From an uncultured Candidatus Saccharibacteria bacterium (GTDB taxonomy: Bacteria; Patescibacteriota; Minisyncoccia; Minisyncoccales; GWA2-38-27): 59,795 bases of DNA. The stretch covers positions 1-59,795 of the forward strand of contig CAYMJA010000001.1 of the NCBI GenBank assembly GCA_964391095.1, given 5' to 3'. The notes beneath the pieces were generated by a model that saw nothing but the letters and a program-made list of their open reading frames with translations, was not told the origin of the DNA and did no database searches. Position numbers and translations under genes: made by a program. Below, piece by piece: positions 379 to 59,795 of the stretch (the stretch's first letter is position 1; each line of letters begins with the position of its first letter).

Positions 379-381
379 ATG

Positions 382-456
382 AGCCTAGAGGCGGAGTTGC
401 ACCGCCGACCTCGTCTTTACCAAAGACGTGCTCTAACTAAACTGAGCTATCTAGGC
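382..456 (-). tRNA. tRNA-Thr (anticodon GGT)
   Basis: Cloverleaf read by hand: acceptor GCCTAGA/TCTAGGC, anticodon loop TTGGTAA, T-loop region GGTGCAACTCC. CCA is not encoded. Confidence 0.85.
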
Positions 457-1053: not shown

Positions 1054-1138
1054 TGGGTGCGGTCGGAGTCGAACCGACGGGGCCTAAATAGACGACTGTT
1101 TTACAGACAGATCCCACCCCCTATGGGACTACGCACCC
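1054..1138 (-). tRNA. tRNA-Tyr (anticodon GTA), long variable arm
   Basis: Acceptor GGGTGCG/CGCACCC, anticodon loop CTGTAAA, long variable arm, T-arm GTCGG-TTCGACT-CCGAC. Confidence 0.85.
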
Positions 1139-2323: not shown

Positions 2324-2441
2324 ACAGTAGCCCGACCTTTTCTCTCGCTCTGATTCTCTATCAATCAGAGAACTGGTTTACCCTGCACCTTTTTCCAGAA
2401 AAGGTGAAGAGTTTATTCAGCGAGTCCAAACAGCTACTATC
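2324..2441 (-). ncRNA. Unclassified structured RNA or long structured leader between rpsP and the KH gene
   Basis: A near-consensus promoter lies immediately upstream. A terminal helix (AGTAGC/GCTACT, CTCGCT/AGCGAG) encloses two 8-bp hairpins (2348-2370 and 2386-2406). Confidence 0.4.
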
Positions 2442-2942: not shown

Positions 2943-2982
2943 ACATTTTATTAAACTGTTAAAGCAAGGAAATTTGTTTTTA

Positions 2983-3012
2983 GGAGTACCGCAGGCAAAA
3001 TTGCTTGGCTAC
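2983..3012. repeat. Partial copy of the rplF-rpsH GC-rich element
   Basis: GGAGTACCGCAGGCAAAATTGCTTGGCTA matches GGAGTACCGCAGGCAAGTTAGCTTGGTTA at 59076-59104. Confidence 0.75.
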
Positions 3013-3698
3013 CAGCCCTTTACTTTTAATGCCTCTTTTGCTGCTTTTTCTTCTGCTTCTTGTTTTGAAAACTCCTCGCCTTTCGCTACTAAATCTTTAC
3101 CAAGAAAAACACCCACAATAAAGTGTTTGGCATGATCCGGTCCCCATTCTTTTAAAACATTATAAGTAGGAGTAATCCCTGCTCTTTCCTGGGCCTTTTC
3201 TTGAAAATGCGATTTAGCATCTTTAAAAAGACCATTTTTAATAATATAAGGTAATTCTTTGAGCAGATGCTTTTTAATAAAATCTTTACAAGAATTTAGT
3301 CCCTGGTCAAGATACAGGCTTCCAATAAAGGCCTCGAAAGCATCAGCTAAAATATATTGCCGCGCCTTACCTGTTTCTTGTAATTCTCCCTGAGAAAGCA
3401 AAATAAAATTATTAAAACTTAAATTTTGAGCAATTCTTGCCAATATTTTAGAATTTACTAATGCCGCTCGCCAACTGGTCAACACTCCTTCTGATTTTTC
3501 TGGGTAATTCAAAAACAGATACTCTGTAACTACATGTTCTAATACTGCATCTCCTAAAAATTCTAATCTTTCATTATGAGAAAGTTTAAAATCAGGATTT
3601 TCGTTTAAAAAAGAACGATGAACAAAGGCCTGAGTAAGCAGATCTTTATTTTTAAATTTTAAATTCAGCTTTTTCTCAAGCAAAGAAAGATTCTTCAT
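3009..3698 (-). CDS. rnc: Ribonuclease III
   Basis: Has the NERLEFLGDAVL RNase III signature and a C-terminal dsRBD. Confidence 0.95.
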   Translation of the reverse strand: MKNLSLLEKKLNLKFKNKDLLTQAFVHRSFLNENPDFKLSHNERLEFLGDAVLEHVVTEYLFLNYPEKSEGVLTSWRAALVNSKILARIAQNLSFNNFILLSQGELQETGKARQYILADAFEAFIGSLYLDQGLNSCKDFIKKHLLKELPYIIKNGLFKDAKSHFQEKAQERAGITPTYNVLKEWGPDHAKHFIVGVFLGKDLVAKGEEFSKQEAEEKAAKEALKVKGW

Positions 3699-19493: not shown

Positions 19494-19527
19494 ACCCTTC
19501 ACCTTTAATCTGTTAAAGGTGAAGGGT
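19494..19527. repeat. CCCTTCACC-family inverted repeat at the gatB 3' end
   Basis: ACCCTTCACCTTTA-atctgt-TAAAGGTGAAGGGT. The right arm encodes the last residues and the stop of gatB. Confidence 0.9.
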
Positions 19528-24494: not shown

Positions 24495-24523
24495 ATAATA
24501 GCCAAAAAGAATCTAAATGTCAA
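24495..24523 (-). promoter_or_regulatory. Sigma70-like promoter for secE-nusG-rplK (GGGTTGACA-17-TATTAT)
   Basis: The -35 box immediately follows the arm of the 24523-24608 inverted repeat. Confidence 0.55.
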
Positions 24524-24608
24524 CCCTTCACCTTTCGGTAGTCATTTAGCATGAAATCAAACTCTATCTATTCCTTCATACAGTAAACATTCCCGAAAGG
24601 TGAAGGGT
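24523..24608. repeat. CCCTTCACC-family element: 16-bp perfect inverted repeats flanking 54 nt
   Basis: ACCCTTCACCTTTCGG ... CCGAAAGGTGAAGGGT, with TCAA on both outer flanks. Confidence 0.9.
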
Positions 24609-24615
24609 CAAGATA

Positions 24616-28819
<4,204 letters not shown>

Positions 28820-31378: not shown

Positions 31379-32818
31379 TTAAGTTGCAATTACTTGACCA
31401 ATTTTTAAAATTTTATTCTCCTCAAACGGTTTTCCAATAATCTGTAAACCAACGGGCAACTTTCCTACAAAGCCGACTGGGATAGAAACGGCTGGCAAGC
31501 CAACTAAGTTTGGGGAAACAGTAAAAATATCAGAAAGATACATTAAAAGAGGGTCTTTAATTTTTTCACCGATTTTAAATGCCGGGGTTGGTGAGGTCGG
31601 GGTTAAAATAATGTCAACCTTTTGAAATGCCTTATCAAAATCTTCTTTAATTAATGTCCTAACCCTCTGGGCTCTTAAATAATAAGCATCATAATAACCA
31701 GCAGAAAGAGCATAAGTGCCAAGCATAATTCTTCTTTTAACCTCATCTCCAAAACCCTCTGCTCTACTTTGTAAATAAACGTCTAATAAAGTTTTGACAT
31801 TCGACCCCTCGCCCTGGCTAAGAGACAAAGAGCTTGATAGTCCGTATTTTATCCCGTCGTATCTGGCCAAATTGGCTGATGCTTCAGAGTTAGTAATAAG
31901 ATAATAAGTAGCCAAAGCGTATTTTGTATGGGCTAAACTAACTTTTTCAATTTTCGCCCCAAGATTTTCAAATTTTTTAATAGCTGTTTTAATTACTTTT
32001 TCGACTTCAGGGTCCATACCTTTAATAAAATATTCTTTTGGAACACCAATCTTTAATTTCGGAATTTGGGGTTTGGGATTTGGAGTTTTAGATTCGACGC
32101 TAGTTGAATCTTTTGGGTCTTTCCCGGAAATTGCTTCAAATACAATTTTAGCATCTTCGGCTGTTTTTGTTATTGGTCCTATCTGATCCAAAGAAGAAGC
32201 AAAAGCAACTAAGCCATAGCGAGAAACTGCTCCATAAGTTGGCTTTAATCCTACCACGCCGCAAAAAGAAGCCGGTTGCCTAATTGAACCACCAGTATCA
32301 GAACCCAGGGCATAGCAACATAAGTCAGCGGCTACGGCAGCCGCTGACCCTCCAGAAGTTCCGCCAGGCACCCGGGTTAAATCATAAGGATTTTTTGTTG
32401 GAAAAAATGCTGAATTTTCAGTCGAAGACCCCATAGCAAATTCATCTAAATTTGTTTTTCCTAAAATTACTGCTCCGAGTTTTTTAAGTTTTTCTATACA
32501 GGTAGCATCATAAGGCGCAATATAATCTTCAAGGATTTTGGAAGCACAGCTTAGCTTAATTCCCTCAATTAAAATATTATCTTTAACAGCTAAAGGAATT
32601 CCAGCCAGAACCGAAATATTTCTACCAACAGAGATTAAATCATCAATTTTTTTTGCCTGGGAAAGAGCTAATTTTTCTGTAACTGTTAAATAGGCGGAAA
32701 TTTCTTTATCGACTTTTTTAATTCTATCCAAAAATGCTTTAGTCAACTCTAAAGCAGAGAACTTTTTTTTCAATAGTCCCTGATGAGCTTGGCTTATGGT
32801 TAATTTACGAAGTTCCAC
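31379..32818 (-). CDS. gatA: Glutamyl-tRNA(Gln) amidotransferase subunit A (GTG start)
   Basis: Amidase signature [25 protein letters not shown]. Confidence 0.95.
32061..32089. repeat. In-frame TTTGGGN heptamer array in gatA
   Basis: GGAATTTGGGGTTTGGGATTTGGAGTTTT, encoding [11 protein letters not shown]. Confidence 0.8.
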
Positions 32819-32821
32819 AAT

Positions 32822-32869
32822 TCAGCGAACAACGAACAGTATCTAATTCATTTTGTCCATTGTTTATTG
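32822..32869 (-). repeat. Intercistronic repeat (copy A), homologous to 58444-58498
   Basis: TCAGCGAACAACGAACAGTATCTAATTCATTTTGTCCATTGTTTATTG. Confidence 0.85.
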
Positions 32870-33169
32870 AAAAATTGCTTTGACCTTAATATGTCTATTC
32901 TTTCTCTGTGGGGCTGCTTCTACTAATTCATTCTTTACTTCGCTTTTTTGGGGTTTTTCTATATCTTCTCTTGTGATATTTAGCTTTCTATTTAAAAAAT
33001 GTTCAGCCGGATGAAAGGTCGGTTCAACTCTGGAAACATTAACCCCTTTTAACAAATTAAAATAATCTAAAATCGAAGAAAGCTCTTTTCTGAATTTTCC
33101 TTCCTCTTTTTTAGTAACACCTAATCTAGCAAGTTTAGCAATATGTTGAACATCTTTTTTCGAAATCAT
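32864..33169 (-). CDS. gatC: Glutamyl-tRNA(Gln) amidotransferase subunit C
   Basis: VQHIAKLARLGVTKKE...SILDYF, upstream of gatA. Confidence 0.9.
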   Translation of the reverse strand: MISKKDVQHIAKLARLGVTKKEEGKFRKELSSILDYFNLLKGVNVSRVEPTFHPAEHFLNRKLNITREDIEKPQKSEVKNELVEAAPQRKNRHIKVKAIFQ

Positions 33170-33204
33170 ACTTAATACCTAATAGTTAATACTTAATACT
33201 TAAT
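33170..33204. repeat. Heptamer array (ACTTAAT)x5 filling the gatC-mreB spacer
   Basis: ACTTAAT ACCTAAT AGTTAAT ACTTAAT ACTTAAT. Confidence 0.9.
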
Positions 33205-43986: not shown

Positions 43987-44837
43987 TTTTTTGATTTCTT
44001 CTTTGGCTTTTTTTGTTTCTTTTTGACCACCGTAGCCTTTTTGGCTGCCGTAACTTTACCCTTCACTTTTCTTTTAGAAAGGGTGAAGGGTTTAACAGAA
44101 GCGGATTTCTTTTTGGAAACCTTCTCTTCAAAAACCTTCTTTTCTTCCGGGACCTTAAAGCTTTCTCTAAACAAGGAAAAGTGTTTTACTAAAATTTCCG
44201 ATGCCCGATAGAACGCTTCTTTGGGAGTAACTGTTCCGTCGGTTTTAATTTCTAAATATAATCTGTCAAAATCTGTCCTTTCTCCTACCCGCATATTTTC
44301 TACTTTATAACTTACTCTTCTGATTGGGGTAAAAATAGCATCAATGGGTATAACGCCAATTTCTAATTTCTCCTGTTTCTTTCTCCGTTCAATCGGTTCA
44401 TATCCAATCCCTTTTTTGATTTGAATTTCCATCTCTAATTCTGCTTTTTTATCAGTTAAAGTAGCAATATGACAGGATTTATTTATTAATTCAACCTGAC
44501 TGGGATAATCGAAATCAGAACCCTTAACTTCTTTTTCTCCTTTAACTTTCAATAATGCTTTTTGGGGCTCATCAGCATATATTTTAAATCTCATTTGTTT
44601 CAAATTCATCATAATCACAATTACATCTTCTAAAACCCCAGGTATTGTTGAAAATTCGTGCTGTACTCCTTTTATTTTCATTTGGGTTACAGCTGCTCCC
44701 GACAAAGAAGAAAGCAAAACTCTTCGAAGACAGTTCCCGATAGTTACTCCATAACCAGGGTATAAGCCCTCAATTTCAAAACGAGCCCAATTATCTTTTT
44801 TGCTAATAATTTTAGATTGCCGTGGTAAAAGTATCAT
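43983..44837 (-). CDS. rpoA: RNA polymerase alpha subunit, N-terminal domain only, plus Lys-rich tail
   Basis: GYGVTIGNCLRRVLLSSL, PIRRVSYKVENMRVGERTDFDRL. No alpha-CTD helix-hairpin-helix sequence is present. Confidence 0.92.
   Translation of the reverse strand: MILLPRQSKIISKKDNWARFEIEGLYPGYGVTIGNCLRRVLLSSLSGAAVTQMKIKGVQHEFSTIPGVLEDVIVIMMNLKQMRFKIYADEPQKALLKVKGEKEVKGSDFDYPSQVELINKSCHIATLTDKKAELEMEIQIKKGIGYEPIERRKKQEKLEIGVIPIDAIFTPIRRVSYKVENMRVGERTDFDRLYLEIKTDGTVTPKEAFYRASEILVKHFSLFRESFKVPEEKKVFEEKVSKKKSASVKPFTLSKRKVKGKVTAAKKATVVKKKQKKPKKKSKK
44058..44091. repeat. CCCTTCAC-family inverted repeat in the rpoA tail
   Basis: ACCCTTCAC...GTGAAGGGT with TTTA on both flanks, encoding KPFTLSKRKVKGK. 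Confidence 0.8.
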
Positions 44838-57033: not shown

Positions 57034-57112
57034 AGTATCAAGTATCAAGTATTAGGTATTAAGTATTTTTTTAAATTTAAATTATACTTAATACTTGACA
57101 CTAAATACTTAA
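57034..57112. repeat. Inverted heptamer arrays (AGTATNA)n / (ATACTTN)n in the rplO-secY spacer
   Basis: AGTATCA AGTATCA AGTATTA GGTATTA AGTAT - AT loop - ATACTTA ATACTTG ACACTAA ATACTTA. Confidence 0.9.
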
Positions 57113-57541
57113 TGCTATCTTTCCGCTGACTTTTTCTATTTTTTCTTTGGCAACTTTTGAAACATCACAATTCTGAATAGTTAGAGCTTTAGTTATTTCG
57201 CCTTTACCCAAAATTTTCACTTTAGGTATCTTACCTTTCATTTTACGGATTATTTTCTTTTCAAGCAAAATTTTCGGAGTAACCAGCTCTAAATTATTAA
57301 ATTTCTTATCTAAAACCTCGACATTAACAACTGCTAAATTTTTTTCTTTTGGCTTGAATCTATAGCCTCTTAATTTTGGATATCTTTTTATCAATCCTCG
57401 GATAATCGGAACCAACTTTCTGCCAGCCCGTGATTTCTGACCCTTAACCCCTCTCCCAGAATAAGTCCCTCGCTTTCCGCCACGACCAATTCGTTTCTTC
57501 TTCTTTAATTTATGTTTGGGACGTAATTGATGCAATTGCAT
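57101..57541 (-). CDS. rplO: 50S ribosomal protein L15
   Basis: MQLHQLRPK...RIGRGGKRGTYSGRGVKGQKSR. Confidence 0.93.
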   Translation of the reverse strand: MQLHQLRPKHKLKKKKRIGRGGKRGTYSGRGVKGQKSRAGRKLVPIIRGLIKRYPKLRGYRFKPKEKNLAVVNVEVLDKKFNNLELVTPKILLEKKIIRKMKGKIPKVKILGKGEITKALTIQNCDVSKVAKEKIEKVSGKIALSI

Positions 57542-58062: not shown

Positions 58063-58440
58063 CTAAAACTCCAGTCCTCCTTCTCTCGCTCCTTCAGCCA
58101 CTGCTTTCACTCTGCCGTGATATTTATAACCCCCTCTATCAAATATTACTTTTTTAATCTTCTTTCCCTGAGCTTTCTCGGCAATTAACTTTCCTATCTC
58201 GTAAGCTCTTTTTACCTTACCAGTAAGCCCTTCAGTTCTTTTTTCTTTTAAAATTTTTACTTTTTTAAGTTCCTTTTCGTCAGCGGCAATTAAAGTTTGG
58301 GCTTTTTCGTCATCAATTAACTGGGCGTAAATATGCTTTGCCGACCTAAAAACACAGAGCCGAGGAACTTCAGCGGTTCCTTTTATTTTCACTCGAACCT
58401 TCTTATGACGTCTATATCTTTTTTGTTGTTTTACTAACAT
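58063..58440 (-). CDS. rplR: 50S ribosomal protein L18
   Basis: [19 protein letters not shown]...[23 protein letters not shown]. Confidence 0.95.
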
Positions 58441-58443
58441 AAA

Positions 58444-58498
58444 TCAGCGAACAGCGAACAGTATCTAATTTATTTTGTTCATTGTTCATTGTTTATTG
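58444..58498 (-). repeat. Intercistronic repeat (copy B), homologous to 32822-32869
   Basis: TCAGCGAACAGCGAACAGTATCTAATTTATTTTGTTCATTGTTCATTGTTTATTG. Confidence 0.85.
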
Positions 58499-59044
58499 TT
58501 ATGTTGTTGCCGTCACCACTTTTTTGCCGGCTTTTCTTCGAACTCGCTCTCCCAAATATCTTATTCCCTTTCCCTTGTAGGGCTCTGGTGGACGAATCGA
58601 CCTTATTTTAGCAGCCACTTGACCAACTAATTCCTTATTAATTCCCGAGACGGTAATGATATTTTTCTCTATTAAAAAATTTATGCCCTCAGGCTTTTTT
58701 ATTTTAACAGGATGAGAAAATCCAATATGTAAAACTAAATTTTCTCCCTCTAAATTCGCCTTATAACCTACGCCTTGTATTTGCATTTTTTTTTCATATC
58801 CTTCAGTAATTCCTTTCACCATATTAAAAATAAGGGTCCTGGTTAATCCCCAAAAAGCTTCAGTTCGTTTAGTTTCTCTCTGAGGACTGATAAAAATCTT
58901 TCCTTCCCTTTCCTCAACCTTAATTTCGGGCCGAATCTTCTTTTGAAGTTCACCTTTAGGACCTTTAACAATTACTGTCTGGCCTTCAATTTTTACCTTT
59001 ACGCTTTCTGGTATTAAAATTGGTTTTTTGCCTACACGTGACAT
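58499..59044 (-). CDS. rplF: 50S ribosomal protein L6
   Basis: MSRVGKKPILIPESVKV...GVGYKA. Confidence 0.95.
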   Translation of the reverse strand: MSRVGKKPILIPESVKVKIEGQTVIVKGPKGELQKKIRPEIKVEEREGKIFISPQRETKRTEAFWGLTRTLIFNMVKGITEGYEKKMQIQGVGYKANLEGENLVLHIGFSHPVKIKKPEGINFLIEKNIITVSGINKELVGQVAAKIRSIRPPEPYKGKGIRYLGERVRRKAGKKVVTATT

Positions 59045-59059
59045 AGTTTTTTGAAGTGA

Positions 59060-59188
59060 GGGAATATGACTTTCGGGAGTACCGCAGGCAAGTTAGCTTG
59101 GTTATGCCGAAGGCGGATAACTTGCCGAGGAACTAAGCTCGTTTTGCCGCTGGAAGCAAAACGAGCGGCTCCCGAAAGTCATATTCCC
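59060..59188 (-). ncRNA. 129-nt GC-rich structured element with 20-bp perfect terminal inverted repeats (MITE-like or structured RNA)
   Basis: Terminal repeats GGGAATATGACTTTCGGGAG (59060-79) / CTCCCGAAAGTCATATTCCC (59169-88). Inner 9-bp stem GGCAAGTTA/TAACTTGCC and 11-bp stem GCTCGTTTTGC/GCAAAACGAGC. Confidence 0.6.
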
Positions 59189-59195
59189 GAACGAA

Positions 59196-59609
59196 TCACC
59201 ATATTTCACAAATAACCTCCCCGCCCAGTTTCTTTTTCCTGGCTTCTTTATCTGTCATTAGTCCTTTCGGCGTGGAAACTATTGTTGTTCCATAACCTCC
59301 CTGAACTCTTTTAATTTCTTTAGCCCGAGCATAAATTCTCTGCCCAGGTTTTGAAATTCTTTTTAAACCGGAAATAGCAGAACCCATTTGCTCTTTTCTG
59401 TCTTTGACAAAACTCTGGTATTTTAAGGTAATCTCAAGAATCTTTTTGGTTTTTCTTCCTTTTCTCTCGACTTTTTCAATAAATCCTTGTTTTTCTAAAA
59501 TCTTAGCAATTTCATATTTTAAATTAGAAAAAGGAATAGAAACCGTTGGATGTAAAACGGCCTGGGCATTACGTATTCTATTGAGCATATCTGTAATGGG
59601 ATCGGTCAT
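59196..59609 (-). CDS. rpsH: 30S ribosomal protein S8
   Basis: MTDPITDMLNRIRNA...GGEVICEIW. Confidence 0.95.
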   Translation of the reverse strand: MTDPITDMLNRIRNAQAVLHPTVSIPFSNLKYEIAKILEKQGFIEKVERKGRKTKKILEITLKYQSFVKDRKEQMGSAISGLKRISKPGQRIYARAKEIKRVQGGYGTTIVSTPKGLMTDKEARKKKLGGEVICEIW

Positions 59610-59613
59610 ATTT

Positions 59614-59686
59614 AGTATTAAGTATTAAGTATGAGGTATTAGATATGTTAAAAAAATTATACTTGATACTTGATACTTTTTACTTG
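59614..59686. repeat. Inverted heptamer arrays (AGTATTA)n / (ATACTTG)n filling the rpsN-rpsH spacer
   Basis: AGTATTA AGTATTA AGTATGA GGTATTA - AT loop - ATACTTG ATACTTG ATACTTT TTACTTG. Confidence 0.9.
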
Positions 59687-59795
59687 CTACCAGCTACTTT
59701 TTTTTACTCCGGGTATTTCGCCCTCGTTTGCTAATTCTCTAAAACAGATTCTACACAAGCCAAATTTTGTATATATTCCTCTCGACCTGCCGCAT
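59687..59795 (-). CDS. rpsN: 30S ribosomal protein S14 type Z, 3' part (5' end outside the window)
   Basis: Manual translation gives [35 protein letters not shown]. Confidence 0.88.

Follow-up and report, generated by a model that had tools for sequence, protein, structure and literature searches.

Intergenic palindromic inserts are a known kind of bacterial DNA, and several described systems resemble the one analyzed here. Correia elements (CREE/NEMIS), a MITE family of Neisseria, are non-coding, ~100-155 bp long and bounded by long terminal inverted repeats (TIRs, ~26 bp); they often lie in transcribed intergenic regions, where they place a long hairpin in the mRNA. They number tens to hundreds of copies, duplicate a TA target site, and contain a conserved core together with an IHF site. 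RNase III binds and cleaves the TIR hairpin of Correia-containing transcripts, changing transcript stability (PMC10969869, PMC2649163), and prokaryotic MITE families may number as few as 1-22 copies per genome (PMC10969869). The REP/BIME and ERIC elements of Enterobacteria are also palindromic, GC-rich relative to their surroundings and found between the cistrons of operons (ERIC, ~127 bp); they are co-transcribed and act as mRNA stabilizers or decay modulators. REPs are mobilized by RAYT Y1 transposases.

Structured inserts and operators are likewise known from essential transcripts. The intervening sequences of bacterial 23S and 16S rRNA, sporadic among close relatives, are stem-loop inserts of ~100-200 nt closed at the base by a long helix between their two ends; they lie within an essential, highly expressed transcript, from which RNase III excises them harmlessly, fragmenting the rRNA. 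Operons of ribosomal proteins typically show tight translational coupling. The spc operon has structured RNA of its own near rpsH, the autoregulatory S8 operator at rplE in E. coli.

Here we analyze a 129-nt palindromic element between rpsH and rplF in a window of 59,795 nt (the whole stretch of DNA examined), from an uncultured Paceibacteria-type member of the Patescibacteria (CPR). By analogy, its closest functional counterparts would be Correia/ERIC-type MITEs, REP elements and rRNA intervening sequences. Unlike Correia elements, it has one full copy, no convincing target duplication and no sequence similarity to them, and a relative keeps part of one arm. REP units are imperfect palindromes of 20-40 nt in many copies, whereas the element is a composite with a predicted three-way junction; REP-like hairpins are multi-copy in the genome of the window and one relative (L093) has a RAYT-like gene, but the element stands outside the window's repeat families and the window has no RAYT gene. 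Intervening sequences are located in rRNA helices, whereas the element occupies an mRNA spacer, where cleavage would part two cistrons. It differs from the S8 operator in position, in lacking an Rfam match and in being unconserved among relatives at 80% protein identity, and long perfect helices such as these set it apart from rRNA-mimic operators. We therefore file it as an orphan intergenic palindromic insert, and neither as a demonstrated MITE nor as a new RNA class.

A composite palindrome in the rpsH-rplF spacer

The minus strand carries both flanking genes, and the window coordinates leave a gap of 151 nt between them, the length given in the preliminary description. The element (59060-59188) lies inside this gap; GGGAATATGACTTTCGGGAG at one end has an exact reverse complement at the other, giving perfect TIRs (20/20). 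The earlier account of a GC-rich, Y-shaped element holds in its coordinates and its three-way fold, and the 9-bp and 11-bp inner stems are both present at the sequences given there (Table 1). The U-G pair that lengthens hairpin A to 12 bp on the mRNA strand leaves a loop of 6 nt, as against 8 nt on the plus strand. For the sub-hairpin within hairpin B, the GCC-TTCG-GGC stem with a UUCG tetraloop proposed earlier does not match the sequence, which is GCCUUCGGC (9 nt) and allows a 3-bp stem capped by a UUC triloop or, with one closing pair only, a cUUCGg loop; the sub-hairpin is absent from the MFE fold of the mRNA strand.

Table 1. Positions of the element, its flanking genes and related features (window coordinates; arms are given in mRNA sense)
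Feature	Position	Strand	Details
rpsH (ribosomal protein S8), upstream cistron	59609..59196	-	Pfam Ribosomal_S8, E 1e-45
rpsH-rplF intercistronic spacer, complete	59045..59195	-	151 nt; GC 0.50; MFE/nt -0.46; z -10
18 nt after rpsH stop (TTCGTTC + GGGAATATGAC)	59178..59195	-	exactly shared with relative L098
Basal helix (20 bp), 5' arm	59169..59188	-	begins 7 nt past rpsH UGA stop
Hairpin A	59137..59166	-	11 Watson-Crick pairs plus one U-G pair on mRNA strand; 11-bp stem GCTCGTTTTGC/GCAAAACGAGC, 59137-59147 / 59156-59166
Hairpin B	59087..59126	-	perfect 9-bp stem GGCAAGTTA/TAACTTGCC, 59087-59095 / 59118-59126, around 22 nt that include a weak GCC-UUC-GGC sub-hairpin
Basal helix (20 bp), 3' arm	59060..59079	-	stops 15 nt short of rplF AUG
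rplF (ribosomal protein L6), downstream cistron	59044..58499	-	Pfam Ribosomal_L6, E 8e-39
rnc (RNase III with dsRNA-binding domain)	3009..3698	-	PF14622, E 8e-38; PF00035, E 6e-13
Partial paralog of element 3' half (mRNA sense)	2959..3012	-	core 2983-3011, 25/29 identical; 16-nt exact run
ACCCTTCACCTTT hairpins	five sites		11 matches vs 2.7 expected
AGTATTAAGTAT-type inverted heptamer arrays	33163, 57034-57117, 59610-59691		
CAGCGAACAG / TGTTCATTG repeats	32816, 58438		
CCCCGCCCTCTA repeat	40930		

The three-way junction is predicted for both strands. As RNA, the element has an MFE of -69.5 kcal/mol on the mRNA strand (z -10.0) and -77.1 kcal/mol on the plus strand (z -8.7), stabilities that none of 200 shuffles reaches; as single-stranded DNA the value is -45.0 kcal/mol (z -10.4). 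The helices comprise 41 pairs (20 G-C, 20 A-U and 1 G-U). In a structure selected as RNA, G-U pairs specific to one strand and tolerated mismatches would normally be expected. Because 40 of the 41 pairs are Watson-Crick and the two strands are modeled to fold equally well, the antisense slightly better, the symmetry of the palindrome points to the DNA level and to a recent or mobile origin. The composition of the element is foreign (GC 0.53 vs 0.35 for the window), and its spacer has the highest GC and by far the most structure per nucleotide of the 38 intergenic gaps of at least 40 nt (-0.46 kcal/mol/nt; the next has -0.39). Within the 5' arm, TTCGGGA is directly repeated. Eight contigs, five from JGI metagenomes and three from Logan runs, carry the 151-nt spacer unchanged, and since these are independent assemblies the element is not an assembly artifact; it is lineage-specific and stable across assemblies.

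The reading that we prefer, tentatively and with a little less than even confidence, is that the element is an orphan MITE/REP-like palindromic insert, co-transcribed and passively processed, and that a related piece at rnc is a decayed second copy. The insert would be non-coding and mobile now or formerly. On the mRNA strand, the element and its immediate surroundings have no predicted sigma-70-like promoter or intrinsic terminator, and the flanking genes share that strand, which together suggest that the insert is transcribed within the spc-operon mRNA. The predicted basal helix brackets the whole insert and makes it topologically self-contained; that it folds back on itself is probably why it is tolerated between cistrons. 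By analogy with Correia elements, host RNase III would be expected to cut the perfect 20-bp dsRNA helix: the element offers about two turns of uninterrupted dsRNA, and the enzyme, with a dsRNA-binding domain, is encoded in the window. Cleavage would either sever the mRNA of the operon between rpsH and rplF, or leave the resulting ends protected by a hairpin. We saw no evidence of a dedicated regulatory role.

Other uses of the spacer were considered. The basal helix is followed by UCACUUCAAAAAACU, and a scan of the spacer predicts neither an intrinsic terminator nor an internal promoter, so that a reading of the element as either was rejected. The sole ORF overlapping the element, an antisense frame of 49 aa, has no Pfam match and was rejected as a gene.

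A selected, cis-acting RNA structure is an alternative that we consider unlikely. The basal helix would then be a programmed RNase III processing site, part of a lineage-wide punctuation of ribosomal protein mRNA by hairpins; in a variant, the looped-out spacer could bring the rpsH stop near the rplF start, favoring re-initiation, or could present an unstructured, A-rich start region in an organism without Shine-Dalgarno (SD) sequences. That all three helices are perfect, that the basal helix is placed so closely between the stop and start codons (Table 1) and that rnc is present in the window agree with such a role. The pairing itself speaks against it, with no strand asymmetry, a single G-U pair and an antisense strand that folds better, as does the failure of any Rfam ribosomal protein leader to match.

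The orthologous junction in relatives

Among 5.8 billion sequences, the closest L6 proteins are 83% identical to that of the window, and the named matches among these closest relatives come from Patescibacteria, Pacebacteria and Nealsonbacteria MAGs; GTDB offers no close relative of the organism, its best L6 match there reaching 60% identity. A comparison of the spacer in related genomes, which had been proposed as a check, found the element in none of the eight relatives examined (L6 74-83% identical). Their rpsH-rplF spacers measure 1 nt (L097), 5 nt (L096), 13 nt (L101), 26 nt (L091), 30 nt (L098), 43 nt (L092), 60 nt (L090) and 153 nt (L093). With junctions of 1-13 nt in three relatives, the structure is dispensable, which argues against a cis-acting role. 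The spacer has a median length of 17 nt over 80 GTDB loci, so the earlier statement that this spacer is usually only a few nucleotides stands as a median; it does not stand as a rule, since 10 of the 80 reach at least 100 nt. Several contigs of relatives terminate exactly within the rpsH-rplF spacer.

Identities of S8 and L6 place the window in a loose group with L098, L090 and L093, and the S8 protein of L098 is 89% identical to that of the window. L098 alone has a spacer that can be aligned with the window's: TGA-TTCGTTCGGGAATATGAC-CTTAAGAAAACT-ATG. Its first 18 nt are those that follow the rpsH stop in the window, and the whole corresponds to the 7-nt left flank of the window and the 11 outermost nucleotides of the 5' arm, fused straight to the right flank. 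Since CGGGAATATGAC occurs at this orthologous site only among 101 loci, the sharing reflects orthology rather than chance. Compared with L098, 121 additional nucleotides are present in the window (59057-59177); they end in a perfect inverted copy of the adjoining GGGAATATGAC and have an ACTT microhomology on either side.

This pattern is not the one predicted by a simple cut-and-paste MITE insertion. Either an imprecise, palindrome-stimulated deletion occurred in L098, or the element grew in situ by template switching in the lineage of the window. The second course can be extended to the whole element: without any transposition, template switching or fold-back replication together with slippage would have built the palindrome, with the 3' arm an inverted copy of native spacer. 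The L098 junction, in which a native-looking TTCGTTCGGGAATATGAC runs directly into the right flank, fits this origin, as do the inverted GGGAATATGAC at the end of the extra nucleotides and the internal direct repeat of the 5' arm. We nevertheless think it improbable that the element arose in this way. Its 89-nt interior consists of two unrelated perfect hairpins and includes a 29-nt paralog of rnc-rpsP sequence, which is beyond a single fold-back event; its GC is far above the local background; and a palindrome-stimulated deletion across the ACTT microhomology could equally explain L098.

The same comparison bears on age and function. The 18 nt past the rpsH stop are unchanged in L098 despite 11% divergence of the S8 protein, an observation in favor of a cis-acting structure. 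If the element predates the split from L098 (S8 89%), its 41 perfect pairs would imply selection on structure, favoring function.

Two further resemblances among the relatives were rejected. The 60-nt spacer of L090 shares TCGGGnnCCGCT with the element, and 190 of 500 shuffles score as well; the spacer of L093 starts with GCATATTCC, similar to the 3' arm, and an 8-mer match of this kind has a chance expectation of ~0.5 by our own estimate. As a whole, the 153-nt L093 spacer is an unrelated, AT-rich tandem array (GC 0.10).

Further copies and the half copy at rnc

None of the 4227 Rfam models matches the element at the gathering threshold, and matches at E of up to 10 come from just unrelated families (12-16 bits, E 1.7-8.7). 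The cmsearch suggested in the preliminary description thus leaves the element unclaimed by any known family; it belongs neither to an Rfam family nor to the window's own repeat families. A gene for a trans-acting small RNA or guide-like RNA (bridge/omega-type, Y-RNA-like or retron-like) would suit its size, its three-way-junction shape and a basal stem closed by the two ends. We nonetheless regard such a gene as highly improbable: no promoter or terminator is predicted, the neighbors are both ribosomal protein genes with no adjacent transposase, RT, Ro or nuclease, Rfam is empty of real matches to E 10, no homolog was found, and the helices are Watson-Crick-perfect on both strands. Hammerhead and other small-ribozyme cores, attC, Y RNA, retron and bridge/omega RNA were each rejected for want of a core motif, an Rfam match or a partner gene.

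The TIR has no further site in the window at up to 3 mismatches (0.03 expected by chance), and an exact scan of 241 M metagenome records for the TIR 20-mer returned the same locus only. A 22-base core pattern valid for both window copies has no match in the GTDB species representatives or IMG/VR, and two further element patterns, including the TIR 20-mer, have none in IMG/VR. A blastn search of the element against plasmids and phages was empty; nhmmer over 1.44 Mb of fetched loci gave self matches and the half copy described below, and a covariance model built from the element as a single sequence (R1) gave self matches only over 430 kb of Patescibacteria loci. In ~64 kb of the organism's own DNA there are thus one full copy and one half copy of 29-54 nt. 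These negatives on copy number are weak, because the metagenome collection returned one of the five JGI contigs of the organism (7 kb), although the four shorter ones also carry the locus; the collections barely sample the host genome, and a low-copy family confined to it could escape these scans.

The half copy is the piece on which the preliminary description based its claim of a dispersed element, and with no second full copy in the searched collections that claim does not follow. The description had reported a 29-nt recurrence at 2983-3012 that overlaps the rnc stop. A paralogous piece is indeed there and does overlap the stop; the identity is exact over 16 nt only, with GGAGTACCGCAGGCAA recurring at 2983-2998, and amounts to 25/29 over 2983-3011. 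With nhmmer, weak similarity stretches to 2959-3012 (E 0.014, 2.9 Mb searched). The piece has the same orientation relative to the mRNA as in the element, starts at the rnc stop codon (3009-3011) and continues into the 66-nt rnc-rpsP spacer, matching only the 3' side of hairpin B, the junction and a degenerate 3' arm. Lacking the partner strand, it cannot form any helix of the element, and the rnc-rpsP spacer has an MFE of just -4.3 kcal/mol; it is therefore a sequence paralog and not a second structured copy. Under the preferred reading of an orphan insert, it would most simply be the decayed remnant of a second insertion. The half copy lies 56 kb from the element and, like it, in a spacer adjacent to a ribosomal protein gene.

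The preliminary description had left open a MITE or a family of structured, possibly guide-like, RNAs, and had named a single-copy element without covariation as one refuting outcome; by that measure the family of structured or guide-like RNAs is not supported. All eight retrievable copies are identical and offer no covariation, which also leaves a cis-acting structure without such a signal in its support. The MITE alternative retains the TIRs, the small size and the lack of an ORF, but in the data searched it fails on copy number, a clean empty site and a parent IS, and the flanks of the TIRs repeat as GA...GA only (2 nt, chance 1/16), longer flanks not repeating.

In its strongest form, the MITE would be active and multi-copy, its other copies and parent IS lying in the ~90% of the genome beyond the window and the searchable collections. 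The perfect 20-bp TIRs, the length of 129 nt, the GC-richness and the absence of an ORF would all suit such an element, as would a partial second copy within the same 60 kb; prokaryotic families of only 1-22 copies per genome are known (PMC10969869), and the metagenome collection under-samples the host (one 7-kb contig of the five from JGI). We consider it very unlikely all the same. The TIR 20-mer occurs nowhere else as an exact match in 241 M metagenome records or IMG/VR, the 22-base core pattern is missing from GTDB representatives and IMG/VR, any target duplication is of 2 nt or less, and L098 does not show a clean empty site at the orthologous position. The window also has no IS with ends that match the element TIRs (up to 3 mismatches) and no Y1 transposase/RAYT homolog. 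The preferred reading of an orphan, MITE/REP-like insert shares part of this burden: against it stand the lack of a second full copy, of a convincing target duplication, of a clean empty site and of a transposase or RAYT in the window.

Hairpin spacers across the ribosomal protein cluster

Long hairpin-forming spacers are common in the S10-spc cluster of the organism (locus L001). Spacers of 58-151 nt occupy 8 of its 14 junctions, and five of these have fold z-scores of -4 or lower; their stems run uninterrupted for as much as 20 bp, and the hairpins end a few nucleotides before the next AUG. Most genes in the cluster show no SD-like motif upstream. Most of the cluster hairpins are members of repeat families dispersed in the window, which has at least four REP-like hairpin families (Table 1). 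The element resembles these ACCCTTCACCTTT, AGTATTAAGTAT, CAGCGAACAG and CCCCGCCCTCTA repeats in one shared 9-mer only, CTTTCGGGA (one copy, 24591-24599), which 2 of 100 shuffles equal. In the neighboring spacers, hairpins are formed from inverted arrays of 6-8-nt tandem repeats, and the same is seen at the rpsH-rplF junction in some MAGs of Saccharibacteria and Chloroflexota. Little other than local slippage and inversion would readily account for such arrays, which to that extent lend support to growth of the element in place.

Composite palindromes are also found in the relatives. L090 carries a GC-rich, multi-hairpin insert of 279 nt between rpsN and rpsH, with a basal helix of ~26 pairs interrupted by two 1-nt bulges (z -10.6). 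L093 has two copies, 90% identical, of a GC-rich palindromic element of 173 nt, near which lies the RAYT-like Y1 transposase gene; one A-T to C-G double change spans its arms. Neither composite palindrome has sequence similarity to the element by nhmmer or R1. The richness of the host genome and its relatives in palindromic repeats counts for the MITE/REP-like reading that we prefer, and the element is an extreme case of the organism's general habit of hairpin spacers.

These observations also supply points in favor of a cis-acting RNA: hairpins at 8 of the 14 cluster junctions, ending a few nucleotides from the next AUG; the scarcity of visible SD-like motifs; and, in the L093 element, a double change that preserves pairing across the arms. 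Hairpins at most ribosomal protein junctions might then be functional "punctuation", with RNase III segmenting the polycistronic mRNA and the hairpin helping to present the next start, in place of tight coupling; we find this distinctly doubtful. If such punctuation is functional, the element would be its most conspicuous example, in SD-poor Paceibacteria.

Taken alone, the element matters little, being one orphan palindromic insert with no family to build on. The more useful lead is that a CPR lineage tolerates or uses long hairpins at the majority of junctions in its most conserved and most expressed operon. If RNase III processes them, they would offer a route to ribosomal protein stoichiometry in a genome-reduced, apparently SD-poor bacterium without tight coupling. 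The content of the hairpins undergoes turnover between strains with 95% protein identity, and hairpins of this sort break metagenome assemblies at ribosomal marker genes.

Hairpins at ribosomal-protein junctions

Long AT-rich hairpins, made up of tandem AAGTATT/AAGTATC heptamers in inverted arrays, are present at several ribosomal-protein junctions of the window and of L001, the S10-spc cluster locus of the same organism; the positions of these and the other features are collected in the table. In a Saccharibacteria MAG (L024), the rpsH-rplF spacer is filled by the same heptamer array. Chloroflexota and Saccharimonadales MAGs also carry a long hairpin in this spacer, built of inverted tandem 6-8-mers (L018, L019, and L069); in L018, TTCTTAA repeats produce a stem of ~45 bp (z −11.6). 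Inverted-tandem-repeat hairpins at the rpsH-rplF junction look like a phenomenon that recurs across phyla, of which a search of the literature found no description. The contigs of three relatives (starts of L097, L099, and L100) break in or exactly at this spacer, which suggests that such hairpin or repeat spacers break up metagenome assemblies at ribosomal marker genes. Among 15 genes of the S10-spc cluster in L001, almost no start codon is preceded by a Shine-Dalgarno-like motif; the start regions are A/U-rich and lie immediately after a hairpin arm.

Palindromic inserts in two relatives

The relative L093 has two copies (90% identity) of a GC-rich palindromic element of 173 nt, with one A-T to C-G double change across the arms. 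A gene for a 260-residue Y1 transposase (PF01797, RAYT-like) is located 10 kb from the element. In a second relative, L090, a GC-rich (0.46) multi-hairpin insert of 279 nt has at its base a closing helix of ~26 pairs with two 1-nt bulges, and the predicted fold has an energy of −123 kcal/mol (z −10.6). This insert has no match in Rfam and no similarity to the 129-nt element of the window. The 373-nt rplX-rplE spacer of L093 is the site of a 61-nt repeat, present three times in tandem with a GGTTCTGACGAAGTCAGGTTC hairpin in each; a single such unit occupies the equivalent place in L090.

Other repeats and tRNA calls in the window

The two 54-nt CAGCGAACAGCGAACAG...TGTTCATTGTTCATTG copies of the window, both in spacers and 25 kb apart, are 89% identical, and a related arm occurs in L001 and L093. 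Arms of a REP-like palindromic family, RCCCTTCACCTTT...AAAGGTGAAGGGY, give 11 matches in the window versus 2.7 expected. One copy falls within the rpsP ORF, in its low-complexity C-terminal tail; in the copy at 24523-24608, a hairpin of ~60 nt is inserted between the arms, splitting the pair. Two ARAGORN calls, an 85-nt tRNA-Phe (anticodon AAA, long extra arm) and a tRNA-Thr, were not reported by the Rfam tRNA model at the gathering threshold; they may be unusual or misassigned tRNAs. Tandem TTTGGGA heptamers (family D5) constitute a further intergenic short-tandem-repeat family, with arrays at two loci.

Positions of repeats, inserts, and genes in the window and compared loci
Feature	Locus	Position	Place
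AAGTATT/AAGTATC hairpin	window	33163-33204	
AAGTATT/AAGTATC hairpin	window	57034-57117	secY-rplO
AAGTATT/AAGTATC hairpin	window	59610-59691	rpsN-rpsH
AAGTATT/AAGTATC hairpins	L001	2211-2288; 6387-6459	
AAGTATT/AAGTATC array	L024	685-875	rpsH-rplF
6-8-mer hairpin	L018	9882-10000	rpsH-rplF
6-8-mer hairpin	L019	8955-9067	rpsH-rplF
6-8-mer hairpin	L069	9836-10000	rpsH-rplF
173-nt element	L093	1274-1446; 9216-9388	tuf-rpsJ; rpsN-rpsH
Y1 transposase gene	L093	19414-20196	
279-nt insert	L090	9248-9526	rpsN-rpsH
61-nt repeat, three units	L093	7965-8147	rplX-rplE
61-nt repeat, one unit	L090	2441-2796 (region)	
54-nt repeat	window	58438-58491	rplF-rplR
54-nt repeat	window	32816-32869	spacer
54-nt-related arm	L001	1913-1973	
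54-nt-related arm	L093	3323-3422	
REP-like family	window	2380-2412; 2606-2635; 19494-19527; 24523-24608; 44058-44091	
tRNA-Phe call	window	1054-1138 (minus strand)	
tRNA-Thr call	window	381-456	
TTTGGGA arrays	window	28261-28324; 32058-32089	intergenic
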